A stretch of 32,000 nucleotides of DNA, taken from NCBI RefSeq assembly GCF_000014785.1, contig NC_008340.1:810001-842000 (forward strand), written 5' to 3'. Below the pieces are notes generated by a model. That model made no database searches. It was not told the origin of the DNA and worked only from the letters and a program-made list of their open reading frames with translations. The translations under genes were made by a program, and so were the position numbers. This document shows positions 6,572-32,000 of the stretch, in pieces (the stretch's first letter is position 1; every line of letters starts with the position of its first letter). This DNA is from Alkalilimnicola ehrlichii MLHE-1. Lineage in GTDB: Bacteria; Pseudomonadota; Gammaproteobacteria; Nitrococcales; Halorhodospiraceae.

Positions 6572-7879
6572 TTGCAGAGAATACGCGTCCGCAATCTCAC
6601 CAAGATCTTCGGCGATCAGCCCGAGGAGGGCCTGAAGCTACTCAAAGAGGGGGTCGCACCCGACAAGATCCACGAACAGACCGGGCTCACCGTGGGGCTC
6701 AATGACGTCTCCTTCGATGTGGACGAGGGCGAGATCCTCGTGGTCATGGGGCTCTCTGGCAGTGGCAAATCCACGCTCATCCGCTGCGTCAACCGGCTCA
6801 TCGAACCCACCGCGGGCAGCGTCGAGGTGGATGGCGAGGACATCCTCCAATACAGCGCGGATAAGCTCTTCGACCTGCGCCGGCGCAAGTTCGGGATGGT
6901 CTTTCAGAACTTCGCGCTGCTGCCCAACCGGACCATTGTCGACAACGTTGCCTTCGGTCTGGAGATCCAGGGCGTCGAGCGCGCGGAGCGCGAGGAGAGC
7001 GCCCGCCGGTCGCTGGAGCTGGTGGGCCTGAAGGGCTGGGAGGAGGCTTACCCCAGTCAGCTCTCGGGGGGCATGCAGCAGCGCGTGGGCCTGGCCCGGG
7101 CGCTGGCCGTGGACCCGGACATCCTGCTGATGGACGAGGCCTTCAGCGCGCTGGATCCGCTGATCCGCCGCGACATGCAGAACGAGCTGATCGACCTGCA
7201 GTCGCGGATGCACAAGACCATCCTGTTCATCACCCACGACCTGGACGAGGCCCTCAAGCTCGGCGATCGGATCGTGCTGATGAAATCCGGCGGCGTGGTG
7301 CAGATCGGCACCCCCGAGGAGATCCTCAGCAACCCCGCCACCCGCTACGTGCAGCGCTTCGTCGAGGACGTGGACAAGTCCCAGGTGCTCACCGCCGGCA
7401 GCATCATGGGCAAGGCCCGGGTGGTGGCCTTTGAGTCTGACGGACCGCGCACGGCGTTGCACAAGATGGAGGAGGAGAGCTACTACAGCCTCTTCGTCAC
7501 CTCCCGCGACTTCCGGGTCAAGGGCGTGGTCTGGGCCGATGACTGCGGCGCCGCCATCAAGCGGGGCGACAAGGACCTTTCGCGCATTCTCGACACCGAT
7601 TTCCATAAGGTGCGTGAGGACACACCCCTGGCCGAGCTCATCACCCTGCTGGCGGAGAGCCGTATCCCGCTGGCGGTGGTGGACGAGCGCGACAAGCTGT
7701 TGGGCACCGTGGTCAAGAGCAACGTGCTCTCGGCGCTGGCCGAGACCCAGGAGAGCGACGTGCTGCCCGACCATCCGGGCCATGACGATAAGGAGGATGC
7801 GCCGCCGGCCACCGCCGCGGCGGATGACGGTGAGACGGTGGCGACCGACGGCGACCGGCAAGGGGGGCAGGCATCGTGA
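6572..7879 (+). CDS. proV: Glycine betaine/proline betaine ABC transporter ATP-binding protein with C-terminal CBS pair and acidic tail
   Basis: Walker A GLSGSGKST, signature LSGGMQQRVGLARAL and Walker B ILLMDEAFSALD, followed by a CBS-like region and the tail DDKEDAPPATAAADDGETVATDGD. TTG start as in the track. Confidence 0.92.
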   Translation: MQRIRVRNLTKIFGDQPEEGLKLLKEGVAPDKIHEQTGLTVGLNDVSFDVDEGEILVVMGLSGSGKSTLIRCVNRLIEPTAGSVEVDGEDILQYSADKLFDLRRRKFGMVFQNFALLPNRTIVDNVAFGLEIQGVERAEREESARRSLELVGLKGWEEAYPSQLSGGMQQRVGLARALAVDPDILLMDEAFSALDPLIRRDMQNELIDLQSRMHKTILFITHDLDEALKLGDRIVLMKSGGVVQIGTPEEILSNPATRYVQRFVEDVDKSQVLTAGSIMGKARVVAFESDGPRTALHKMEEESYYSLFVTSRDFRVKGVVWADDCGAAIKRGDKDLSRILDTDFHKVREDTPLAELITLLAESRIPLAVVDERDKLLGTVVKSNVLSALAETQESDVLPDHPGHDDKEDAPPATAAADDGETVATDGDRQGGQAS

Positions 7880-9643: not shown

Positions 9644-9680
9644 CTGTCACAATCGTGACGGCCCGGGTCCGGGCCGGAGG

Positions 9681-9740
9681 GGCCACCCCGCGGGTCGGCC
9701 GGGTCTATCACCGGCGCAGCCTGCGGGGTGGCCTTTTTCT
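9681..9740 (+). terminator. Candidate intrinsic terminator downstream of proX
   Basis: GGCCACCCCGC (9681-9691) pairs with GCGGGGTGGCC (9723-9733) and is followed by TTTTTCTGTT. The loop is long (about 31 nt), so this is atypical. Confidence 0.4.
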
Positions 9741-9820
9741 GTTCGCAGGCCTCGGGCGGCATGGCCGCCCGCACTGCGGTATCATCGGCACACCAATGCG
9801 GACTATGGACAGGGGGCAGT

Positions 9821-10267
9821 GTGCGTGAATATTGGATGAGCCCGGTCACCCGGTGGGTGGGTATCGCCGTACTGGTCATCATCCCGGCGATGCTGATCGC
9901 CGGGATCAGTCAGGGCCGGTTGACCCCGGCCGAGCCCGGGGCGTTCTACATGAACCTGTTCCTAGGGGTGCTGGTGGTCTACTTGGTGGGCATGCTGATC
10001 TGGAACGGCAGCCACTGCCCGCTGGCCCGCCAGGACGGCGAGCGCTTCGAGGTGCTGCGCGCCTTCACCCCCGGGGGCGGCTGGCGCTGCTATGACCTGG
10101 ACAAGCTGTTCATCGTCCGCCGCTCCCTCTCCGGCACCATGTTCGGCTTCACCGACGGCAGCCTGGCCCACCTGCGCACCAGCCTGCTGCGGCGCGCCGA
10201 TGCCAAGGAACTGGTGCAGACCATGCGCGAACGCGCCGACCGGCAGAAGCCGGAGGGCTTGGGGTGA
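9821..10267 (+). CDS. Hypothetical small membrane protein (two predicted TM helices plus a soluble C-terminal domain)
   Basis: In-frame GTG at 9821 follows AGGGGG; an alternative ATG is at 9836. It has hydrophobic segments WVGIAVLVIIPAMLIAGI and FLGVLVVYLVGMLIW. I recognise no family. The track start at 9728 lies inside the terminator-like structure. Confidence 0.5.
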   Translation: MREYWMSPVTRWVGIAVLVIIPAMLIAGISQGRLTPAEPGAFYMNLFLGVLVVYLVGMLIWNGSHCPLARQDGERFEVLRAFTPGGGWRCYDLDKLFIVRRSLSGTMFGFTDGSLAHLRTSLLRRADAKELVQTMRERADRQKPEGLG

Positions 10268-10576: not shown

Positions 10577-11590
10577 TCAGGCGTCCCCGTTCACGCCGTT
10601 TTCCTCGTCCTCGCCGTTCTCTTCCTCCTCTCCGTCGTCGATATCCAGGAAGACCTCGGTGGTCTCACCTGGTTCGGCGTCCAGCGTGATGACCTTGGAG
10701 GTTCCGATCACCAAGTCATCTCCAGCGGCGTCCGGGTCATCCTCGTCAGCGTTGCACACTAGCGCCAGGGTATAGGTTTCAGGTTCCAGGAACCCAAAGC
10801 GGAAGGTCCAGTTGCCGTCTTCGTTGACGTCATCGGCGTCCTCCCCCTCGTGGGTTGCGGTGGTCAGTGGCCCCTGGTCCTCTGCAATATCGTCGAAGGT
10901 GTCGGTCTCGCCTTCGTAGACGTAGACGGCGGGCACGGGTGACTCCGTTTCGCAGGCGGCTGGCGGGGCGAAGACATCCAAGTGACCGACGTTGTCCAGG
11001 GAGATCACGCGTAGAACGGGACGGAAGAGGTATTGCTCGTTACCGGTTTTCACCAGGGATTTGCGCAGATCCACATCCACCACAAGCCGCAACGCCTGTC
11101 CGTCTTCGATCGTTTCGCCACCGGGCATATTCAACTGAAAGCCCCGGGTGCCGCCAGACGGAATGCGGAGCGGTTCCTCGCTCCCGTCCTTAAGTACGAG
11201 CCAGGACGCCCCGGAGTGCGGGAGGGGGTCATTCGCCTCATCCGCATCCAGTTTCAGGCGGATCCAGTTGTAGGTCCCCGCCGGAATGGTCTCTTCAGTG
11301 ACCAGATCCGCACTCTCACTGCCTTGGAGCGAGAGCAGGTCAACGGCGTCAGGCGCCTCATCGACGAGTATCTCGAAGGGTTCACCGTCCTGGGGATTGA
11401 ACTCAAGGGAATGGAACCGCACCCAGACCTCCTGGACTTCGTCCACCGGTGCGTCGGTGACCGCCAGGGAGAAGGTCGCCTCCTCGTCGTCCGTGCTACT
11501 ACTGCTCCCGCTGTTGCAGGCCGCTACCAGGGCGCCGCTGGCCAGGATGGCGGCCAGGGCGGACCAATGACGGGTCTTGTGTTGGCTCAT
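10577..11590 (-). CDS. DUF4382-like secreted lipoprotein with a polyacidic C-terminal tail
   Basis: Signal peptide with lipobox ALVAAC. FSLAVTDAPVDEVQEVWVRFHSLEF resembles the DUF4382 N-terminal signature. The C-terminus is IDDGEEEENGEDEENGVNGDA. The opposite-strand ORF 11033-11644 has no recognisable features. Confidence 0.72.
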   Translation of the reverse strand: MSQHKTRHWSALAAILASGALVAACNSGSSSSTDDEEATFSLAVTDAPVDEVQEVWVRFHSLEFNPQDGEPFEILVDEAPDAVDLLSLQGSESADLVTEETIPAGTYNWIRLKLDADEANDPLPHSGASWLVLKDGSEEPLRIPSGGTRGFQLNMPGGETIEDGQALRLVVDVDLRKSLVKTGNEQYLFRPVLRVISLDNVGHLDVFAPPAACETESPVPAVYVYEGETDTFDDIAEDQGPLTTATHEGEDADDVNEDGNWTFRFGFLEPETYTLALVCNADEDDPDAAGDDLVIGTSKVITLDAEPGETTEVFLDIDDGEEEENGEDEENGVNGDA

Positions 11591-24130: not shown

Positions 24131-25090
24131 TCAGAGCGCCCCGCCGCAGCTGGACCCCTGGCCAGCGGTACAACCGTAGCAGTGATCGGCGACGGCAATC
24201 GGCTCGCCGCTCAGATCACGCCCGATCAGATCCCGAAGGTGGCTGCGCGGCCTGTGGCCAGCGCCCAGGGGAATGGCCAGCATCTGGTTGAAGTCGCAAT
24301 CGTAGACGTAGCCGCGCCAGTCCACGCTGAGCAGGCTACGGCACATGACGTTGGCGAGGTTCTCCGGCCGGTAGGCGGACTTGAGCAAGGCCATGTAGGC
24401 CTCGTACTGTCCTGATTTGTAGAGCTGTTTGGCGAAGCGGTGGATGGGCATGTTGGTGATGGTGAACAGGCCGTTGAAGACAATGCCGAACTCGTCCGCC
24501 AGGTGCTGTTTGTAGTCCGCCTCCAGTTGGTCCTGGGGTGGCGGCAGCGTGGCGCCCAAGGGATTGTAGACCAGGTTCAGGGGTAGTCCGCTGCCGGGTT
24601 GGCCGTAGCCCACCGCGTTGAGCTGCCGCAGGCCGCGGATGCTCTGCTCGAAGACCCCCTCGCCGCGCTGGCTGTCGACGTTGTCTGCCGAATAACAGGG
24701 CAGCGAGGCCACCACCTCCACCCGGTGGGCGGCGAGGAAGTTGGCCAGACCCTCCTGTCCAGGCTGCTCCAGCACGGTGAGGTTGCAGCGGTCCATCACC
24801 TGCACGCCGAGCCCGTGGGCCTGCTCCACCAGGTAGTGGAACTGCGGGTTGAGCTCCGGCGCCCCGCCGGTGAGATCCAGGGTGCGCGCCCCGGAATGGC
24901 GCAGATAGGCTAGCACCAGGTCGGCGGTGGCGCGGTCCATCTTCTCCTTGCGGTTGGGGCCGGCATTGACGTGGCAGTGGAAGCAGGTCTGGTTGCACAC
25001 GTAGCCGACGTTCACCTGCAGGGTCTCCAGCCGCCGGCGACGGATGGCCGGGAAGGTGGTCGGTTGCAGTTGCGGAAAGGTGGCGCTCAT
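24131..25090 (-). CDS. arsS: ArsS-type radical SAM/Cys-rich-domain protein (TIGR04167-like, Cys rather than Sec version)
   Basis: GGAGG precedes the ATG. It has the radical SAM motif CNQTCFHC and the C-terminal signature DWRGYVYDCDFNQML...CYGCTAGQGSSCGGAL, which is characteristic of this family. Confidence 0.85.
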   Translation of the reverse strand: MSATFPQLQPTTFPAIRRRRLETLQVNVGYVCNQTCFHCHVNAGPNRKEKMDRATADLVLAYLRHSGARTLDLTGGAPELNPQFHYLVEQAHGLGVQVMDRCNLTVLEQPGQEGLANFLAAHRVEVVASLPCYSADNVDSQRGEGVFEQSIRGLRQLNAVGYGQPGSGLPLNLVYNPLGATLPPPQDQLEADYKQHLADEFGIVFNGLFTITNMPIHRFAKQLYKSGQYEAYMALLKSAYRPENLANVMCRSLLSVDWRGYVYDCDFNQMLAIPLGAGHRPRSHLRDLIGRDLSGEPIAVADHCYGCTAGQGSSCGGAL

Positions 25091-25120
25091 GAAACCTCCG
25101 TCTGATGGTGGCGGGCGCGG

Positions 25121-26542
25121 CTAGCGCCCCGGCAGCCAGCGCTGCAGGAAGGCAACCAGTTTTCGCGTTCTGTCACTGTAGAGTTGCTCGGTGTAGCGGG
25201 TGTTCACCGCCCGCCGAAAGACCTGAGCCAGGGTGGGGTAGGCGTGTATGGCCGCCGCCAGGGTGCCCACCCGCAGCCGGGCCTGGATGGCCAGCACCGC
25301 CTCGTGGATCAGTTCGCCGGCGTGCGGACCTAACACGCTGGCCCCCACCAGGCGGCCCCGGCGCACGATCAGTTTCGCCTGTCCGGCGGTCTCGCCCTCG
25401 GCCAGGGCCCGGTCGACCTCACGGAAGGGGAAGCGCAGCACCTCTACCTTGAGATTGCGGGCCCGGGCCTCGTCCTCGGTCAGCCCGACGGTGGCCAGTT
25501 CAGGGGCCGTGTAGGTCACCCAGGGCACGACCCGGTAATCCACCTTTTTCGGGATGCGGAACAGGGCGTTGGCAATGACAATTCCGGCCTGGTACTCGGC
25601 CATGTGGGTAAAGGGGTAAGGCCCGCAGCAGTCCCCCACGGCGTAGATGTGGCGGACGCTGCTGCGCTGGCGCCGGTCCACCCGGATGCCGCGCGGGCCG
25701 TAGGCCACCCCGGCCGCCTCCAGGCCGAGATCCAGGTTGGGCTTGCGCCCGGCCGCCAGCAGCAGGGCGTCGGCCGTCACCGTCCAGTGGCTCTCGCCGT
25801 TGCGACAGGCCAGCCGGGTGATCCCTTCCGATTGCTCCACCCGTTCCACGGTGGTGGCGGTGTGCACGGTGATGCCCTCGGCGTCCAGCACCGAGCGCAG
25901 TTCCGCGGCCTGCTCCGCGTCGTCCCGGGGCAGGATCTGTGCGGCCATCTCCACCACCGTGACCTGGCTGCCGAGCCGGCTGAAGGCCTGGGCCAGCTCA
26001 ATACCGATCGGACCGCCGCCCATAACCGCCAGCCGGCGCGGCAGGGTGCGCAGTTGGAAGATGGTCTCGTTGGTGTGGAACCCCGCCTCGGCCAGCCCCG
26101 GCACCGGGGGGACGGCCGGCGCGGATCCGGTGGCGATCACGAAGCGGCGGGCCTGGAGCCGCTCACCGTCGACGCTGACGGTGTCGCGGTCGAGGAAGCG
26201 GGCGTGGCCGAACCGGACGTCCACCCCGTAACCGCGGAAGCGGTCCGGGTCATCGTGGACCTGGATCTGGTCGATCACCTGCCGGACCCGGTCCATGACC
26301 GCGCCCAGGTCCACCGGGCCCAGTTCGGCCTGCAGGCCGAACTCCCCGGCGCGGCGGGTCAGGGCTGCCACCTCGGCCGAGCGGATCAGCGTCTTGCTAG
26401 GCACACAGCCGTAGTGCAGGCAGTCGCCGCCCAGATTGGCACCGGCGTCGATGAGCACGGTCTTCACCCCGAGCTGACCGGCGACACTGGCGGTCACCAG
26501 CCCCCCCACGCCGCCACCGATAATGATCAGATCCTGTTTCAT
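25121..26542 (-). CDS. Class I pyridine nucleotide-disulfide oxidoreductase (MerA/Lpd-like, no metal-binding N-domain)
   Basis: It has IIIGGGVGG, the redox-active disulfide GGDCLHYGCVPSK, a second dinucleotide fold VMGGGPIGIELA, and the dimerisation-domain motif HAYPTLAQ. ATGA overlap with the upstream TVP38 gene. Confidence 0.9.
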   Translation of the reverse strand: MKQDLIIIGGGVGGLVTASVAGQLGVKTVLIDAGANLGGDCLHYGCVPSKTLIRSAEVAALTRRAGEFGLQAELGPVDLGAVMDRVRQVIDQIQVHDDPDRFRGYGVDVRFGHARFLDRDTVSVDGERLQARRFVIATGSAPAVPPVPGLAEAGFHTNETIFQLRTLPRRLAVMGGGPIGIELAQAFSRLGSQVTVVEMAAQILPRDDAEQAAELRSVLDAEGITVHTATTVERVEQSEGITRLACRNGESHWTVTADALLLAAGRKPNLDLGLEAAGVAYGPRGIRVDRRQRSSVRHIYAVGDCCGPYPFTHMAEYQAGIVIANALFRIPKKVDYRVVPWVTYTAPELATVGLTEDEARARNLKVEVLRFPFREVDRALAEGETAGQAKLIVRRGRLVGASVLGPHAGELIHEAVLAIQARLRVGTLAAAIHAYPTLAQVFRRAVNTRYTEQLYSDRTRKLVAFLQRWLPGR

Positions 26543-27228
26543 GCATCCCCCCCGGTGGCCGGTTTCTCATCGGGCAACGGCTGCCGGCGGATGCGGCGGA
26601 TCAGACGGGGCAGAAACAGCACCACCGCCAGCAGGGCCAGGGCGATCAGCACCGCCTGGATGGCGCGCTCGCCCCCAGCGATGGCCTCGGCGCCCGCGTA
26701 GCCGAGCCAGGTGTAGGCCAGTGCCCCGGGGGCCATGCAGACGAACGTCGCGATCAGGTAGTGGGCGAGCGGGATGCGGGTCAGCCCCAGGGCGTAGTTG
26801 AGCAGGTTGAAGGGGAACAGTGGCACCAGCCGGGTCAGGGCGACGAAACGCCAGCCCTCGCGCTCCACCCCGGCGATGACGCGGCCGAGCTGGCCACCGG
26901 CCTTGCGTGCCACCCAGTCAGCGGCCAGATGGCGGGCCACCAGGAAGGCCAGTCCGGCACCCACGGTGGCCCCGATCAGGCTGTAGAGCGTGCCCCAGAG
27001 CGGGCCGAAGAGCACACCCCCGGCGAGGGTGAAGACCGAACCGGGGACGAAGCCCACCGCCGCGATCGCGTAGGCCCCCATAAAGGCCAGGGGCGCCCAG
27101 GGCCCCAGGTCATCCAGTGTGGCCCGCAACACGTCCACCTGCAGGTGGTCGCGCAAGGCCCAGGCCAGGGCGATGACCAGGGTCAGCCCGAGGACGATGA
27201 GTGCTTTGCGGATGAGCCGGCGCGGCAT
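26539..27228 (-). CDS. TVP38/TMEM64 (DedA/SNARE-associated) family membrane protein
   Basis: 229 aa, 5-6 hydrophobic helices, with FVPGSVFTLAGGVLFGPLWGTLYSLIGATVGAGLAFLVAR and RLVPLFPFNLLNYALGLT typical of the family. Confidence 0.85.
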   Translation of the reverse strand: MPRRLIRKALIVLGLTLVIALAWALRDHLQVDVLRATLDDLGPWAPLAFMGAYAIAAVGFVPGSVFTLAGGVLFGPLWGTLYSLIGATVGAGLAFLVARHLAADWVARKAGGQLGRVIAGVEREGWRFVALTRLVPLFPFNLLNYALGLTRIPLAHYLIATFVCMAPGALAYTWLGYAGAEAIAGGERAIQAVLIALALLAVVLFLPRLIRRIRRQPLPDEKPATGGDA

Positions 27229-27243
27229 GGGTTCCCCCGGTGC

Positions 27244-27277
27244 GTAGGATTTGACTGTCAGTATCCTGGAATCCTAC
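27244..27277. promoter_or_regulatory. Nested inverted repeat in the gap between the polytopic membrane gene and the TVP38 gene
   Basis: GTAGGATT (27244-27251) and AATCCTAC (27270-27277) enclose the palindrome TGACTGTCA (27252-27260). AGTATCC is directly repeated at 27260 and 27285. Confidence 0.25.
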
Positions 27278-27321
27278 ACCGGGGAGTATCCGTAATACCC
27301 GAACCCGCGCACCGGGTGGGG

Positions 27322-28533
27322 TCAGGCCCGCGCGGGGCTCGGGCGGCTGGCGGCGTTGCCAAAATGCTTTCGGTTCAGTTGCATCACTAGCCAGATGGTG
27401 GCGGCGTGGAAGGCCAGGGCGACCCCGGTGATCGTCCAGTAGAGACCGCCGTACGCCGCGATGGCACCACTGTCGGCCAGTGCGACATTGACCCAGAAGT
27501 GCAGCATGACGGTGATGGCGACACCGGGGCAGACCAGCGTGTAGCTGCCGGGTGAGCGCTCCGACCCGGTGACAAACCGTCGGAAATAGCCATACCGGCG
27601 CAGGACCACCCAACCCAGCAGCCCGAATGCGACCTGGGCCATCAGTAGCGTCGTCAGCAGGCCAAACCCTTGTACCCCACCGACCCCGTCACCGAGCACC
27701 TCGATACCGTGACCCTGGCGCAGCAGGGCGATGCTCAGGACCGTCAGGATGGGCACCACGATCCAGAGGCTGGGTGCGGTCTCTGGGTTGGCCCCCTGGT
27801 CGAGCATGCCCCTTATTCCCAGGATGAGTTGCACGGTGCCGCTGATGATGGCGGTGACGATGAAAAAGCTCGAGAGCACCAGGCTGACCAGGACGGTCAG
27901 GCTGTTCTCGCTCATGGCCGCGGGGGCGGCCAGCCCGACCCCGATCATGGACAAGGCGAACGCCGGCAGCAGTTGGGCGAAGCTATTGTTCTTGGTGCAA
28001 TCAAAATTGCCCTCGGTGAGCACTCGCCCCCAGAAATCGCGCAGCAGCATCAGCGCCCAGACGCCGACCGCCAGGAAGGCCAGCAGGGCCATCGGGAACA
28101 GCCACTCGACAATCTGCCAAAGGCCGGGGACGAAGGCCATGCCCAGCACGAAGCCGACGTTGATGCTCATGGCGAGCGTCAGCGGTCCGGCGAGCAATTG
28201 GGTCTCCGCGTTGCTCTCGCGCAGCGCCCGGTAGGCGGCGGTGCGTCGAAAGGCCTGGAAGCTCTTTAGGTTCCAGGCCAGCAACCGAAAGTGCAGGACC
28301 GAGAAATAGGCGATGCCGAGCCACGCCCCGATTAGGGCCAGCTGCTGGTAGAGCGGACCCTGGCCCAGGACGCCGATCAGTTCGTCGAATACCGGCATGG
28401 GGGTTTCGCTGTAGGGCATCCAGTGCATCAGCCACATGAAGAAGGCAACACCCAATCCCCCGGCGCCCAGGGCCGCCAGGAAATAGAGCGGTGAGTACTG
28501 CTCCGGTGGGGTGTGGGGCAGGCGTTGCAGCAT
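27322..28533 (-). CDS. Polytopic integral membrane protein of unknown family (about 10 TM; possibly TehA/TDT-like)
   Basis: ATG at 28533 lies 6 nt after GGAGGAG; the track start at 28572 is upstream of that RBS. It is hydrophobic throughout. The N-terminal PLYFLAALGAGGLGVAFF loosely resembles the first helix of TDT/SLAC1-type transporters. Family assignment is not secure. Confidence 0.7.
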   Translation of the reverse strand: MLQRLPHTPPEQYSPLYFLAALGAGGLGVAFFMWLMHWMPYSETPMPVFDELIGVLGQGPLYQQLALIGAWLGIAYFSVLHFRLLAWNLKSFQAFRRTAAYRALRESNAETQLLAGPLTLAMSINVGFVLGMAFVPGLWQIVEWLFPMALLAFLAVGVWALMLLRDFWGRVLTEGNFDCTKNNSFAQLLPAFALSMIGVGLAAPAAMSENSLTVLVSLVLSSFFIVTAIISGTVQLILGIRGMLDQGANPETAPSLWIVVPILTVLSIALLRQGHGIEVLGDGVGGVQGFGLLTTLLMAQVAFGLLGWVVLRRYGYFRRFVTGSERSPGSYTLVCPGVAITVMLHFWVNVALADSGAIAAYGGLYWTITGVALAFHAATIWLVMQLNRKHFGNAASRPSPARA

Positions 28534-28580
28534 GAGGGCTCCTCCGTATTCTTGCGTTGGAGCGGCATCCAATCGCTCAG

Positions 28581-28614
28581 TGAATCAATATATTCATGAA
28601 AGATAATATGTGAC
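28581..28614 (-). promoter_or_regulatory. Candidate promoter (-35 GTCACA, 16-nt spacer, -10 TATATT on the minus strand) with an overlapping AT-rich dyad
   Basis: The plus-strand sequence TGAATCAATATATTCA at 28581-28596 has TGAAT/ATTCA arms. The -10 maps to 28587-28592 and the -35 to 28609-28614. It lies in a conspicuously AT-rich island upstream of the membrane protein gene. Confidence 0.3.
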
Positions 28615-28660
28615 TGGGGCGCGGTCAAATGCCCGCCCTGTGGCGGGTTGCCGCAGGGGG

Positions 28661-29281
28661 TCACGGCCGGTATTCGGGCCAATCGGGCGGCAGGTGGCGT
28701 AGATCGCCGGGCTCGTCGATATCGTGCAGGGTGGGGCAGTGGTGCAGGGACCACCCCAGGGCACTGAGGCGGGCGGCGGTCACCTGGCAGACCGTGGGGG
28801 TGCTCCAGGGCACATCCCGAAAGAGGTCCGGGTGGCAGTGGTTGAAGCCAAGGGCGGCGTAGCCGCCGTCCGCCACCGGTGTGATCGCCGCATCGGCATC
28901 GCCCAGCGCGCGCGCCATGGCGTGCAATCGGTCGGCGGTCAGAGCGGGGCAATCGGTGCCCATCAACAGTGCCGGTCGGCCGCCGGCGATCACCCGTCCG
29001 GCGGCACGGGCTAGCCGGGCACCCAGATCGCCGTCGCCTTGGCCGCTGAGGATCAGCCCCGGGGGCAGTTCCACTGCCCCCCAGGCCCTGTCGTCATCCG
29101 GGCTGCGACAGAGCTCCACCGGTCCCAGGTCCGCCCGGAGGGCCTGAGCCAGCGCGTGGGCCAACAGCCGGGCGGCGAGTTCGGCGGCGCCCGCCGGGCC
29201 GAGGGCTGGGATCAGGCGCGTCTTCACCCGGCCGGGGCGCGGGGCCTTGGCAAAGACCACCGTGTGCACGGTCGGGGTCAT
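28661..29281 (-). CDS. DUF2064-type transferase (TIGR04282-like, 'rSAM/selenodomain-associated transferase 1')
   Basis: ATG at 29281 forms an ATGA overlap with the GT2 stop. It has VVFAKAPRPGRVKTRL, GDLGARL, LMGTDCPAL, PVADGGYAALG and VPWSTPTV motifs. The track start at 29344 would overlap GT2 by 67 nt. Confidence 0.8.
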   Translation of the reverse strand: MTPTVHTVVFAKAPRPGRVKTRLIPALGPAGAAELAARLLAHALAQALRADLGPVELCRSPDDDRAWGAVELPPGLILSGQGDGDLGARLARAAGRVIAGGRPALLMGTDCPALTADRLHAMARALGDADAAITPVADGGYAALGFNHCHPDLFRDVPWSTPTVCQVTAARLSALGWSLHHCPTLHDIDEPGDLRHLPPDWPEYRP

Positions 29282-29982
29282 CGATAACGCTGTGCCAGCC
29301 GGTCGGCCGGCACCCCCCGCCAGTAATCGAAACGCAGGCGCCACATAAGCAGAATGGTCGCAGCGACGCCGTGGCGCTCCCAGCGCCGGCCCGAGGTGAG
29401 CACCTGCTCGGGCAGGCAGGCGGGGGGGCCAAGCCGCTTCAGGCGTCGGCTCATCTCGATGTCCTCCATCAGCGGTTGGTCGGGGAAACCGCCGACCGCG
29501 TCGAAGGCCTCACGGCGCATGAACAGCGCCTGATCGCCGGTGGCGATGCCGGTGAGCCGTGAGCGCCGGTTCATCAGTGCGGCAACCACGGGGAGCAGCG
29601 GGTGTCGACCGCTGATGGTGACATCAAAGCGGCCCCAGACCGGGGCCGGAGCGCCCAATGCCTGTTGCACCAGGCGGTCGGCACCGGCGGGCAGCCGGGT
29701 ATCGGCATGCAGAAACAGCAGCAGCGGGTGGCGGGTGGCCCGGGCGCCCGCGTTGAGCTGGCGGGCACGGCCCGCCGTGGCCGTGATCATCCGCAGCCCG
29801 TGGGCCTGCGCTGCCGCCGGCGTGTCATCGTGACTGCCGCCGTCCACCAGCAAGATCTCATGCCCCGGGGCCAGCGCAGTACTACGCAGGTTGCGGGCCA
29901 GGGCGGGGATCTGGCCGGCCTCGTTCAATACCGGCACGATCACCGAGAGCGGCGGCGTTGTGTGCGGGCTTTGCGTGTTCAC
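29278..29982 (-). CDS. Family 2 glycosyltransferase (TIGR04283-like, 'rSAM/selenodomain-associated transferase 2')
   Basis: It has LSVIVPVLNE, LLVDGGSHDDT, GRARQLNAGA, LLFLHADTRLP, TGDQALFMRREAFDAVGGFP, LMEDIEMSRRL and TSGRRWERHG. GTG start with a weak RBS. Confidence 0.83.
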   Translation of the reverse strand: MNTQSPHTTPPLSVIVPVLNEAGQIPALARNLRSTALAPGHEILLVDGGSHDDTPAAAQAHGLRMITATAGRARQLNAGARATRHPLLLFLHADTRLPAGADRLVQQALGAPAPVWGRFDVTISGRHPLLPVVAALMNRRSRLTGIATGDQALFMRREAFDAVGGFPDQPLMEDIEMSRRLKRLGPPACLPEQVLTSGRRWERHGVAATILLMWRLRFDYWRGVPADRLAQRYR

Positions 29983-30058: not shown

Positions 30059-30724
30059 TCAGTGCTCCTCCACCGGCAGGCCCGCCGCCCGCCATTCCGG
30101 GTAGCCGTCGGCCAGGCGCCGGGCCTGCAGCCCGTGTTCGCGCAGCACCCGCACCGCCTTGTGGGCGAGGGCGCAGTAGGGGCCGCGACAGTAGGCGACG
30201 ACCTCGCGATCCGGCGGGAGGTCGCGCAACCGGCGCTCCAGCTCCGCGGCGGGGATGTTGATGGCCCCCGGCAGGTGCCCGGTCCGGTACTCCTGCTCGG
30301 GCCTGACGTCGAGCAGGGTTACCAGGCCGTCACGAAGGCGCGCGGTGAGGTCGTCGGCGTGGATCGCCTCCAACGTCTGTGACCCCTCGAAGTAGCTCTC
30401 GAGCAACTGCTGCATCTCCACGATATTGTGTTCCGCCACCCCACGTAATGCCGCCAGCAGGCCGACCACGTTGTCGTCGGTGATGCGGTAGTGGACGTAC
30501 TTTCCCTCCCGCCGTGGCCGGACCAGGCCGGCCCGGCGCAGATGTTGGAGGTGTTGCGACACCGTGGCCACCGGCAGCCGGGTGAGCTCGGTCAGTGCCT
30601 CCACGGTGCGTTCGCCCTGGGCCACGTACTCCAGCAGCTCCAGGCGGTAGGGGTGCCCCAGGGCCTTGCCCAGGGTGGCCAGCTGTTCGAGGAGGTCGCG
30701 CTTTTCTGGGCGGATACGGGACAT
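30059..30724 (-). CDS. ArsR/SmtB-family transcriptional regulator fused to a C-terminal rhodanese domain
   Basis: ATG at 30724. It has the wHTH region LGHPYRLELLEYVAQGERTVEALTELTRLPVATVSQHLQHLRRAGLV. The rhodanese part is LLDVRPEQEYRTGHLPGAINIP...VVAYCRGPYCALA, with the active-site loop CRGPYC. Confidence 0.88.
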   Translation of the reverse strand: MSRIRPEKRDLLEQLATLGKALGHPYRLELLEYVAQGERTVEALTELTRLPVATVSQHLQHLRRAGLVRPRREGKYVHYRITDDNVVGLLAALRGVAEHNIVEMQQLLESYFEGSQTLEAIHADDLTARLRDGLVTLLDVRPEQEYRTGHLPGAINIPAAELERRLRDLPPDREVVAYCRGPYCALAHKAVRVLREHGLQARRLADGYPEWRAAGLPVEEH

Positions 30725-30775
30725 GGGGGCTCTCACGGGTGGTGTTCGGCGTGTGGGATCGCATACGCTGGCATT

Positions 30776-30795
30776 ATTATAATACATTCCAGAAT
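30776..30795. promoter_or_regulatory. AT-rich divergent promoter region: palindromic ATTATAAT (a TATAAT on both strands) plus the dyad ATTC-CA-GAAT
   Basis: ATTATAAT lies at 30776-30783 and ATTCCAGAAT at 30786-30795. This is the only AT-rich stretch between the divergent regulator and rubredoxin-fusion genes. The -35 elements are weak. Confidence 0.3.
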
Positions 30796-30981
30796 ATGAA
30801 ATACAGATGCCGGCGGCGCCGCTTGCCCGTCATTAACGGGGTCGGCTCATCAGCACCGCATCGACATCATGCGCGCGATGCGTGAGACTCAGGGGCGCGT
30901 CAACCGCTATTTGGGCAAGCATTTTGGGCCGCTGGGTGAGGAGCTGGAGCGCCTCGGGGCCACCTGACCGAGGGAGGAGCC

Positions 30982-32000
30982 ATGGGCAGACCCTACCGAC
31001 GCTACCTGTGCCGCGTCTGCGGTTATATCTACGACGAGGCCAAGGGCGATCCTGACGGGAGTCTGCCTCCCGGCACCCGCTTCGAGGACATCCCGGATGA
31101 CTGGGAATGCCCCGACTGCGGGATGCGCAAGGTCGAGTTGGATCTCCTTGAGGAGGGCGACGACGGCGGGGGCAGCCCCAAGATCCGCACGGGGTCGGCG
31201 CGCCCACAGGATCCGGGGCCGGGTCAGGACCCGCACCCGGTGGTTATTGTCGGGGCCGGTATGGCTGGTTGGGCGGTGGCGGAGGGGGTGCGGGCCCAGG
31301 ACGAGGGCCGCGCCATCACCCTCGTGACCCAATGTAACGGGGACGTCTATTACAAGCCCCAGCTGTCGGCGGCGGCCGCGCGTGGGCGGGGCCCGGATGA
31401 GCTCATTCAGGCGACCGGCGAGGACAAGGCCCGGGCCCTGGGGGTGAATCTGCTGGCCCGTACCCGGGCGTTGCGCATCGACACCGACCGGCGCCGCCTG
31501 ATCACGCCGCGTGGCGGTATCCCCTTCGGTGACCTGGTCCTGGCCTGCGGCGCCCGCCAGCCCCGCCCGAGGCTGGCGGGGGACGCGGCCGGCGACGTGC
31601 TGCAGGTGAACGACCTGGCCGATTACCGGCGGCTCCGTGAACGGGTGGATGTCCACGACTCGGCACGGGTCTTTATCCTCGGTGCCGGGCTGATTGGCTG
31701 CGAGTTCGCAGAGGACCTCTCCGGCGCCGGCCATGCGGTGACTCTGGTGGACATCGCCGAGCGGCCGCTGGCGCGGCTGCTGCCCGTGCCCCTGAGCGCG
31801 GACCTGGCATTGGCGCTGGATGACAAGGGCGTGGCGCTGCACATGGGCCGGACCGTGGACGCGGTGGACCGGGCCGCGGATGGGGGCTATCGGGTGATGC
31901 TGGACGATGGTGGGGTCGTGGCCGCGGACGTGGTGGTCAGTGCCCTGGGCCTGATCCCAAACACCTATCTGGCGACCCGGGCCGGGCTGTCGGTGGGGCA
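30982..32000 (+). CDS. Rubredoxin domain fused to an FAD-dependent pyridine nucleotide-disulfide oxidoreductase (rubredoxin reductase-like); 3' end off-window
   Basis: This gene is not in the supplied ORF track because no stop occurs in the window. ATG at 30982 follows AGGGAGGAG. My own translation is [50 protein letters not shown] (rubredoxin CxxCG...CPxCG), then a Gly/Pro linker, then [16 protein letters not shown] and [17 protein letters not shown] dinucleotide folds. The frame stays open to position 32000. Confidence 0.85.

Follow-up and report, generated by a model that had tools for sequence, protein, structure and literature searches.

The ArsS gene cluster of Alkalilimnicola ehrlichii MLHE-1, a lineage-specific arrangement of a known proteobacterial cassette

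Many Proteobacteria carry gene cassettes built around the radical S-adenosylmethionine (SAM) enzyme ArsS, yet only for the cyanobacterial ArsM-ArsS pair has the chemistry been demonstrated. ArsS adenosylates the trivalent dimethylarsenical DMAs(III) to 5'-deoxy-5'-dimethylarsinoyl-adenosine, DDMAA (PMC13598754), a reaction also attributed to it in a passage of PMC12159101 that cites Cheng et al. 2021, and in Synechocystis arsS lies downstream of the methyltransferase gene arsM and is co-transcribed with it (bioRxiv 10.1101/2022.09.23.509062). Here we describe a cluster of this type on the minus strand of a 32,000-nucleotide stretch of Alkalilimnicola ehrlichii MLHE-1 (contig NC_008340.1, positions 810,001 to 842,000). 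This whole stretch is called the window and its own numbering is used throughout. The locus is a lineage-specific arrangement of a known, already-named cassette, and what is novel in it is a clade-restricted gene for a channel-like protein of the TsoY family and, at the head of the string, a gene for an ArsR regulator carrying a rhodanese domain.

MLHE-1 is a chemoautotroph and a cultivable, genetically studied, arsenic-respiring model organism. It oxidises arsenite and comes from Mono Lake, an arsenic-rich habitat (PMC6620896). A preliminary description of the cluster had taken the absence of arsM, together with additional redox and membrane genes, as a sign that the product could differ from a canonical arsenosugar. 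On balance, we lean towards reading the region as the MLHE-1 version of the proteobacterial ArsS cluster, which would make 5'-deoxyadenosyl-derived organoarsenicals of the arsenosugar type. The genes and sites of the string, from head to tail and with lengths in amino acids (aa) or nucleotides (nt), are:

30773..30800, minus strand: promoter-like site upstream of arsR-rhodanese, holding GAATGTATT (30781-30789)
30059..30724, minus strand: ArsR/SmtB helix-turn-helix (HTH)-rhodanese regulator, 221 aa, first gene of the co-oriented string
29278..29982, minus strand: TIGR04283 family 2 (GT2) glycosyltransferase (T4283), 234 aa
28661..29281, minus strand: TIGR04282 DUF2064 protein (T4282), 206 aa
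28534..28660, minus strand: 127-nt spacer upstream of tsoY, with an AT-rich promoter-like island and a GGAGGAG ribosome-binding site
27322..28533, minus strand: TsoY-family polytopic membrane protein, 403 aa
27229..27321, minus strand: 93-nt spacer upstream of the DedA gene, with nested inverted repeats
26539..27228, minus strand: DedA/TVP38 (VTT-domain) membrane protein, 229 aa
25121..26542, minus strand: class I flavoprotein disulfide reductase, 473 aa
24131..25090, minus strand: ArsS radical SAM enzyme, 319 aa, last gene of the string

The six co-oriented minus-strand genes already described between 24131 and 29982 were all recovered as open reading frames (ORFs) at these coordinates, and independent gene callers agree on A. 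ehrlichii contigs. The ATGA overlaps joining T4283 to T4282 (cgATGAcc) and the DedA gene to the reductase gene (gcATGAaa) can be read directly from the sequence, as can the 30-nt gap ahead of the ArsS ATG with its GGAGG site, and the GT2 motifs reported for T4283 (GRARQLN, GDQ, EDIE and TSGRRW) are all present in the translation. A seventh co-oriented gene had been omitted, namely arsR-rhodanese, which lies 76 nt upstream of T4283 and for which a 221-aa gene call was obtained as well. Co-translation and co-transcription would be in keeping with the ATGA overlaps and the short gaps, and the cluster is probably a seven-gene unit headed by the ArsR-rhodanese regulator.

Families were called by comparing hidden Markov model (HMM) bit scores with curated cutoffs (TIGRFAM/NCBIfam), together with Pfam domains. 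The radical SAM gene belongs, as proposed, to TIGR04167 ArsS (459.3 bits, cutoff 300, E 5.3e-138, match 2-303/303), and its Pfam domains are PF12345 DUF3641 (191.5 bits) and PF04055 (34.8 bits). The CX3CX2C motif reads C32NQTCFHC. The Cys-rich C-terminus is also as described: the protein ends DHCYGCTAGQGSSCGGAL, its tail is CYGCTAGQGSSCGGAL, and the segment ...CYGCTAGQGSSC315GGAL is invariant in 21 homologues. Cys315, equivalent to the selenocysteine (Sec) of the GxxU position, is encoded by TGC, hence this ArsS copy is the Cys form and not a selenoprotein.

Both transferase assignments were corroborated, TIGR04283 with 266.1 bits (cutoff 182) and a PF00535 match of 52.7 bits, and TIGR04282 with 186.2 bits (cutoff 134) and a PF09837 DUF2064 match of 112.7 bits. 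T4282 appears to resemble CofC/MobA-like nucleotidyl or nucleotide-diphospho (NDP)-sugar transferases: it matches the CofC model TIGR03552 (E 4e-8), and the one relative with a solved structure, 3cgx (E 2.4e-16), is a putative nucleotide-diphospho-sugar transferase. We found no experimental function for TIGR04282 or TIGR04283 in the literature, and the names of both families rest on genome context.

The neighbourhoods of arsS were surveyed in 80 loci from different bacterial species, mostly beta- and gammaproteobacteria with 59-67% identity to the query, scored by tblastn and all-against-all ORF clustering. Partner counts refer to the 45 proteobacterial loci in which arsS is flanked on each side by 6 kb or more, here called full loci. 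T4283 is found in 36 of them and T4282 in 33; DedA and reductase occur with ArsS, on the same strand, in 27 (60%), and an ArsM-like gene is adjacent in five (11%; 12 of all 80). After the two transferases, the commonest neighbour of a proteobacterial ArsS is a fusion of DedA and disulfide reductase, not ArsM. The typical order is ArsS, optionally a symporter and an unnamed protein (unk355), the DedA-reductase fusion, optionally DUF547, then T4283, T4282 and optionally DUF3047 and TIGR03169. Beyond the core, the recurrent neighbours are unk355 (soluble, 355 aa), an SSF-type symporter, DUF547, DUF3047 and TIGR03169 ("N-terminal to SelD", 12 of the 45 full loci), and also an extracytoplasmic function (ECF) sigma factor, a sterol-desaturase-like protein and methylthioadenosine (MTA) phosphorylase. 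The last is next to arsS in six other loci and is annotated beside T4283/T4282 on a Burkholderia thailandensis plasmid, and loci on plasmids annotated with the NCBI pipeline PGAP give the same picture of the neighbourhood as a whole.

Concerning the membrane and redox pair, the DedA gene matches PF09335 VTT (93.5 bits), and the CxxxxC flavoprotein proposed next to it is indeed one, with the redox pair C41LHYGC46 and a match to class I pyridine-nucleotide disulfide oxidoreductases. Its best-scoring models all stay below cutoff (NF004991, 506.7 bits against 620; MerA, 381.5 against 454.45; Lpd, 387.5 against 408.8), and the identical MLHE-1 protein is named 'dihydrolipoyl dehydrogenase family protein'. 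An identification as MerA or Lpd was rejected on these scores, and MerA also because the protein has neither an NmerA domain nor a C-terminal Cys pair, starting at the FAD-binding motif and ending ...LQRWLPGR. In about 27 of the 33 loci where both genes cluster, DedA and reductase form one fused protein of 708-766 aa. When the two window proteins are concatenated they align end to end, across the junction, with 33 homologues, and the motif GGDCLxxGCVPSK is conserved. Judged by this alignment, the ATGA-overlapped pair of the window is a split form of the standard 'TVP38-FAD oxidoreductase' fusion partner. Around residues 432-442, where the fused homologues have HxYPTxAEAN, the window protein reads HAYPTLAQVF, with Gln in place of Glu. 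The subfamily also lies beside ArsS in T. thiocyanodenitrificans and in locus L179. In Aquisalimonas asiatica (L177, 4048-9425) genes for an SSF symporter, a 317-aa unknown protein, DUF3047, VTT and the reductase stand together with no ArsS or transferase gene within 8 kb, so the accessory module can stand alone.

The spacer just upstream of the DedA start (27229-27321) holds, within 27235-27284, two nested perfect 8-nt inverted repeats, CCCCGGTG/CACCGGGG and GTAGGATT/AATCCTAC, which could be a regulatory hairpin or an operator. It is conserved in Alkalispirillum mobile, whose locus L161 (7761-10960) aligns with window 27333-24131 at 82.7%. An Rfam scan of the window gave no match, thus no riboswitch or SECIS-like family.

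The scanned coding ORFs of the window contain neither arsM nor an AhpD/peroxidase-like gene, as had been stated, and the same is true of the next ~6.5 kb past its right edge. In the papers found that name MLHE-1 and arsM together, MLHE-1 occurs in reference lists only. In Ectothiorhodospira shaposhnikovii (L163, 10918-11577) a CMD/AhpD-like 'peroxidase-related' protein, absent from the window, directly follows ArsS. It scores below all cutoffs (best: YciW-related (seleno)protein, 98.5 bits, cutoff 310) and is probably the peroxidase-like partner whose absence had been remarked upon.

The step from a missing arsM to a non-canonical product is not supported by the survey. As said, ArsM is adjacent in only 11% of the full loci, and the same partners occur together with a bona fide ArsM. 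The best ArsS match among the 80 loci, L001 (67%), has the order ArsS, ArsM, DedA-reductase fusion, T4283, T4282, and its ArsM scores 548.9 bits with the arsenosugar-specific model NF038099 (cutoff 400). Locus L179, reached through its reductase (62% identity), combines in one neighbourhood ArsR-rhodanese, a VTT-rhodanese fusion, reductase, ArsS, GT2, DUF2064 and ArsM (PRK11873, 364.5 bits, cutoff 263), and L031 is a further case of a bona fide ArsM beside the same partners. Since the DedA-reductase pair is common and a local arsM is usually missing, the MLHE-1 layout is in these respects the typical state and gives no argument for a different product; the clusters with a bona fide ArsM (L001, L179) show in turn that these partners belong to arsenic-type clusters. 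Of the additional genes that had been taken to mark a departure, the DedA-reductase pair therefore loses that role, being present in 60% of the full loci, and only the TsoY gene is unusual, with no occurrence in the 80 ArsS loci (0 of the 45 full ones). In an unbootstrapped neighbour-joining (NJ) tree of all ArsS sequences, the ArsM-linked ones are scattered. It should be noted that L179 (1-17410), a gammaproteobacterial metagenome contig, also encodes a fatty acid hydroxylase, a 761-aa Fer4/pyr-redox protein, two multihaem cytochromes, a small methyltransferase and a thioredoxin, with MerR and MerC nearby.

The polytopic membrane protein, considered uncharacterised in the preliminary description, proved to be a classified one: it matches the TsoY family (seleno)protein model NF047644 over its full length (502.4 bits, cutoff 150, match 1-378/378), and the identical MLHE-1 protein carries this name at NCBI. 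With the narrower model NF047643, selenoprotein TsoY, it reaches only 54.6 bits (cutoff 250). An AlphaFold2 model (pLDDT 85.1, pTM 0.87) matches the ten-helix TehA/SLAC1-like anion-channel fold: the top 22 PDB hits in Foldseek are all TehA/SLAC1 with probability 1.0, the best being 3m77 (E 4.7e-4, TM-score 0.67), and the target-normalised TM-scores of these 22 range over ~0.51-0.70. At the sequence level, PF03595 gave no Pfam match in the protein at E<=0.001, and the family profile found no PDB sequence at E<=10. In a Halofilum sp. metagenome-assembled genome (MAG; L172, 3093-5458) a TsoY gene lies directly downstream of a PF03595 SLAC1/TehA gene, which fits the fold relationship. Cys335, within C-P-G-V, is invariant in 80 of 80 homologues, and Cys179 is semi-conserved. 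The Sec motif listed for selenoprotein TsoY is UxxV (PMC13188914), to which C335-x-x-V338 may correspond.

Eighty TsoY-family loci, taken from metagenomes, were surveyed for their neighbours. ArsS-cluster genes were found in one of them, a soda-lake contig whose TsoY is 75% identical to that of the window. The typical neighbours are SMC, RlmH/RsfS, LrgAB, an unnamed 119-aa ORF and a probable PrxU selenoprotein gene, and they give no functional clue. The 119-aa ORF, with no NCBIfam match, is directly upstream of the TsoY gene on the same strand in 23 of the 80 loci, including L140 (9556-9915). In L107 (6909-7307) and about nine other TsoY loci the neighbouring ORF matches peroxiredoxin PrxU from profile position 105 onward only, a pattern which suggests that a UGA(Sec)-interrupted PrxU selenoprotein gene lies beside tsoY in some genomes. 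The locus was also considered as a Tso selenoprotein operon and rejected as such, given the score below the NF047643 cutoff, a Cys and not Sec at position 335, and the absence of TsoA, TsoB, TsoC and TsoX from the window; the ArsR-rhodanese protein scores 55.8 bits as TsoR (cutoff 115), and its rhodanese domain 41.8 bits as TsoB (cutoff 805).

The position of tsoY between T4282 and DedA is shared by A. ehrlichii, a relative at 85% and an Alkalispirillum-like MAG at 75%, and among the sampled loci tsoY stands within ArsS clusters only in the Alkalilimnicola/Alkalispirillum clade. The type strain of Alkalispirillum mobile (L161, GCA_003664325.1) has no tsoY: a 153-nt spacer (7710-7862) takes the place of window 27322-28660, and in it two remnants of the gene survive, 41 nt from the interior of tsoY (encoding LLHDFWGRMLT) and the final ~20 nt of the ORF. 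On either side of the spacer the sequence matches the tsoY-bearing MAG locus L171 at 99% identity. Because of this deletion scar, tsoY is taken as ancestral in the cluster of this clade and recently deleted in A. mobile, and a recent insertion of tsoY in MLHE-1 was rejected. We also examined unk355, which precedes DedA in other loci, as a distant TsoY homologue and discarded it (BLASTP E 0.11, soluble protein).

The regulator at the head of the string matches NF033788 (76.5 bits, cutoff 55) as well as PF01022 and PF00581, and scores 53.7 against the BigR model (cutoff 155). Its only cysteines lie in the rhodanese loop, YC179RGPYC184; the HTH domain has none, so that the protein lacks the classical sites for sensing As(III) or persulfide. 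An ArsR-rhodanese gene occurs in one of the 45 full ArsS loci, and four further lineages (L036, L043, L169 and L179) have homologues next to ArsS clusters. As for control regions, the AT-rich promoter-like island before tsoY was confirmed as a pattern: of three sigma-70-like hits in the 7.2 kb region, two fall at 28587-28628, with 0.7 hits expected over the whole region. Its conserved core GAATATATTGAT (~28584-28595), i.e. GAATATATT(G/T)AT, is invariant in four lineages. The third hit is upstream of arsR-rhodanese (TTCATA-16-AATAAT), where a core TTCA..TT.TGGAAT....ATAAT is conserved in L169. Within the 32 kb window the sequence GAATRTATT is present only upstream of these two genes, and, though the motif was chosen post hoc from the two sites themselves, it hints at a common control of tsoY and arsR-rhodanese.

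The arsenic reading is supported by the scores of ArsS, TIGR04282, TIGR04283 and the TsoY family, all above their curated cutoffs and in agreement with the Pfam domains, and by the host itself, an arsenite-oxidising Mono Lake organism. In the pathway that we envisage, ArsS would cleave SAM reductively and add the 5'-deoxyadenosyl group to a trivalent methylated arsenical, yielding DDMAA; this reaction is established for the cyanobacterial ArsS, and for MLHE-1 we infer it from equivalog-level membership. The methylated substrate would be supplied either by an ArsM whose gene lies at another place in the genome or by the environment. An enzyme of the MTA phosphorylase type, encoded elsewhere, would then remove adenine to give an arsinoyl-ribose-1-phosphate, the CofC/MobA-like T4282 would activate this arsinoyl sugar phosphate, and the GT2 enzyme T4283 would attach the arsinoyl-ribosyl group, at the membrane, to an acceptor that is a lipid or of the glycerol type. 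DedA and reductase together would act as a membrane-anchored NAD(P)H-dependent dithiol reductase that keeps either a thiol carrier of the arsenical or the C-terminal Cys pair of ArsS reduced; a further role of DedA may be to flip an intermediate linked to a lipid. More speculatively, TsoY, as a clade-specific addition, could carry an anionic arsenical, as substrate or product, through the inner membrane, and ArsR-rhodanese could sense its signal via the rhodanese Cys pair and control the promoters upstream of its own gene and of tsoY.

Several observations weigh against this pathway. No ArsM was found from window position 1 to ~38.5 kb; the window ArsS falls in an Ectothiorhodospiraceae clade of six loci, none of them with an adjacent ArsM, and for two related Thioalkalivibrio strains a complete absence of arsM is reported (PMC6620896). 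In the reductase, the Gln found in the dyad region replaces the Glu of the His-Glu catalytic dyad. The reductase subfamily is not exclusive to ArsS, being solitary in Ectothiorhodospira BSL-9 and, in Aquisalimonas, accompanied by DedA, DUF3047 and symporter genes without ArsS. In Thioalkalivibrio thiocyanoxidans ARh2 a possible TVP38-GT-GT trio, of unverified orthology and with no adjacent radical SAM gene annotated, is unresponsive to arsenite. The own promoter-like island of tsoY, its lack of linkage to ArsS genes in 79 of 80 loci and its deletion in A. mobile with the rest kept mean that tsoY may be functionally independent. Finally, T4282, T4283, the DedA-reductase pair and TsoY have no known biochemical role, so the steps after ArsS are deduced.

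Among the alternatives, the one that survives best is that the locus is not unitary, tsoY and perhaps the DedA-reductase pair being independent modules and TsoY serving a general anion or stress role. We regard this as doubtful, yet as a possibility to be reckoned with. The promoter-like island of tsoY is conserved, spacers of 127 and 93 nt delimit the gene, the TsoY-family loci outside ArsS clusters have housekeeping or unrelated neighbours, A. mobile lost tsoY with the other five genes intact, and the DedA, reductase, DUF3047 and symporter genes of Aquisalimonas do without ArsS. Against it, tsoY sits in exactly the same slot in three diverged lineages with 75-100% protein identity, DedA and reductase accompany ArsS on the same strand in most full loci, and the 9-mer common only to the tsoY and arsR-rhodanese upstream regions, post hoc as it is, hints at common control.

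A second alternative, which we consider unlikely, is detoxification or salvage of exogenous methylated or thiolated arsenicals in place of de novo synthesis, for which no cellular ArsM would be needed. TsoY would take arsenicals in or let the product out, the reductase would maintain the arsenicals in the trivalent state, and ArsS and the transferases would turn them into benign sugar conjugates. The local absence of arsM, the presence of a channel-fold protein and a membrane-anchored reductase, and the arsenic-rich Mono Lake habitat (PMC6620896) all suit this scheme, and the rhodanese regulator could sense persulfide or thio-arsenic species. On the other side, direct evidence for substrate import is lacking and arsM may be located elsewhere in the MLHE-1 genome; moreover, the scheme overlaps with the organoarsenical synthesis favoured above, from which it differs in the source of the substrate only.

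A bolder version, which we rate as improbable, holds that the ArsS cassette of this clade has been re-plumbed and made independent of ArsM: methylated or thiolated arsenicals from the surroundings (or a different soft metalloid or chalcogen species) would be captured and held reduced by TsoY, through a reactive intramembrane Cys, and by the DedA-reductase pair, ArsS and the transferases would build a membrane-linked organoarsenical, a new kind of ArsR would sense via its rhodanese Cys pair and, more broadly, the DedA-reductase fusion would be an essential, unrecognised step of arsenosugar or arsenolipid synthesis. Just as improbable is the original proposal that the product contains no arsenic, being a sulfur or selenium analogue or another 5'-deoxyadenosyl-derived glycoconjugate or lipid, with the proteobacterial 'arsenosugar' label over-extended from cyanobacteria: it can draw on the missing arsM in ~38 kb, the rarity of ArsM neighbours and their absence from the ArsS clade of the window, the (seleno)protein nature of the TIGR04167 and TsoY families (PMC13188914), the recurrence of TIGR03169, the rhodanese domains, a SufE after ArsS in L169 and the two transferases without published function, but it is opposed by the bona fide ArsM in the same strings with the same partners (L001, L031, L179), by the interspersion of ArsM-linked and unlinked ArsS in the tree, which argues for one function, by the equivalog score of ArsS and a host that lives in and respires arsenic, and by the lack of any positive evidence for an alternative substrate.

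Turning to the surroundings, a rubredoxin-fused NorW-like NADH reductase gene (30940-32000, plus strand) lies divergent from arsR-rhodanese; it also flanks the cluster region in A. mobile and L171 and is hence a conserved neighbour. Elsewhere the window encodes SufS/SufU, an RND pump, a betaine ABC transporter, HemH, an Mrp antiporter, NtrR, NadA, an MFS protein, PhaC and Sir2, and the ~6.5 kb past its right edge GGDEF proteins, MerR, HU and PheT. At 355-2234 a SufS-family cysteine desulfurase gene (TIGR01979, 595 bits, above cutoff) is followed by the SufU gene; the desulfurase scores 645 bits with the family 2A encapsulin cargo desulfurase model (cutoff 800, profile positions 218-623 only), and no encapsulin shell gene was noticed. 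Two ORFs have no NCBIfam match, one at 9659-10267 (plus strand) with a coding-like GC content at third codon positions (GC3) and one at 10577-11590 (minus strand) that failed the GC3 screen and may be noncoding. Local GC content dips to 0.625-0.628 at 6-7 kb and 11-12 kb and is ~0.68 elsewhere in the window.

As a compact seven-gene cluster without a local arsM, the MLHE-1 locus offers a practical system to ask what ArsS cassettes make in non-phototrophs, where the methylated substrate comes from and what the reductase and the channel-like TsoY protein contribute. The natural tsoY deletion of A. mobile provides a ready-made comparison with its tsoY-bearing relatives. The survey also corrects a tempting over-reading, since a missing arsM together with extra redox and membrane genes is usual in ArsS clusters and no sign of a new pathway.

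The Tso, or 'three selenoprotein operon', system with its selenoprotein TsoY was reportedly described by Haft and Tolstoy in 2025. The MLHE-1 membrane protein shares with it the membership in the broader TsoY family, NF047644, and differs in its setting, an ArsS cluster, whereas 79 of the 80 sampled TsoY-family loci have no ArsS genes. Compared with TehA/SLAC1 (TDT family), the likeness is in the predicted fold only, with no detectable sequence similarity; TsoY is longer (403 against ~310 aa), and the invariant intramembrane Cys is a feature of the TsoY family. With MerA and dihydrolipoyl dehydrogenase the reductase has in common the class I FAD/NAD(P)H disulfide oxidoreductase fold, the CxxxxC pair and the dimerisation domain but, unlike them, the ArsS-type reductase goes together with a DedA membrane domain, either as a separate partner or as a fusion.

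The arsM-arsS arsenosugar pathway of Synechocystis sp. PCC 6803 (Xue et al. 2017/2019; Cheng et al. 2021) and the MLHE-1 locus share an ArsS of the same TIGR04167 equivalog-level family, with CX3CX2C, DUF3641 and a Cys-rich C-terminus, and the expected reaction is 5'-deoxyadenosylation of a trivalent methylarsenical. They differ in that arsS adjoins arsM in Synechocystis, whereas MLHE-1 has no arsM within ~38 kb and its ArsS ends a string of two transferases, TsoY, DedA and disulfide reductase with ArsR-rhodanese at the head. Closest is the generic proteobacterial cassette (L001, L004, L066, L179). MLHE-1 departs from it in its split DedA and reductase, in ArsS being last and not first, in tsoY between T4282 and DedA, in lacking DUF547, DUF3047, TIGR03169, unk355, the symporter and ArsM, and in the Gln that replaces the dyad Glu; what it has in common with it are the same five families on one strand and a reductase with GGDCLxxGCVPSK whose best score is likewise with NF004991.

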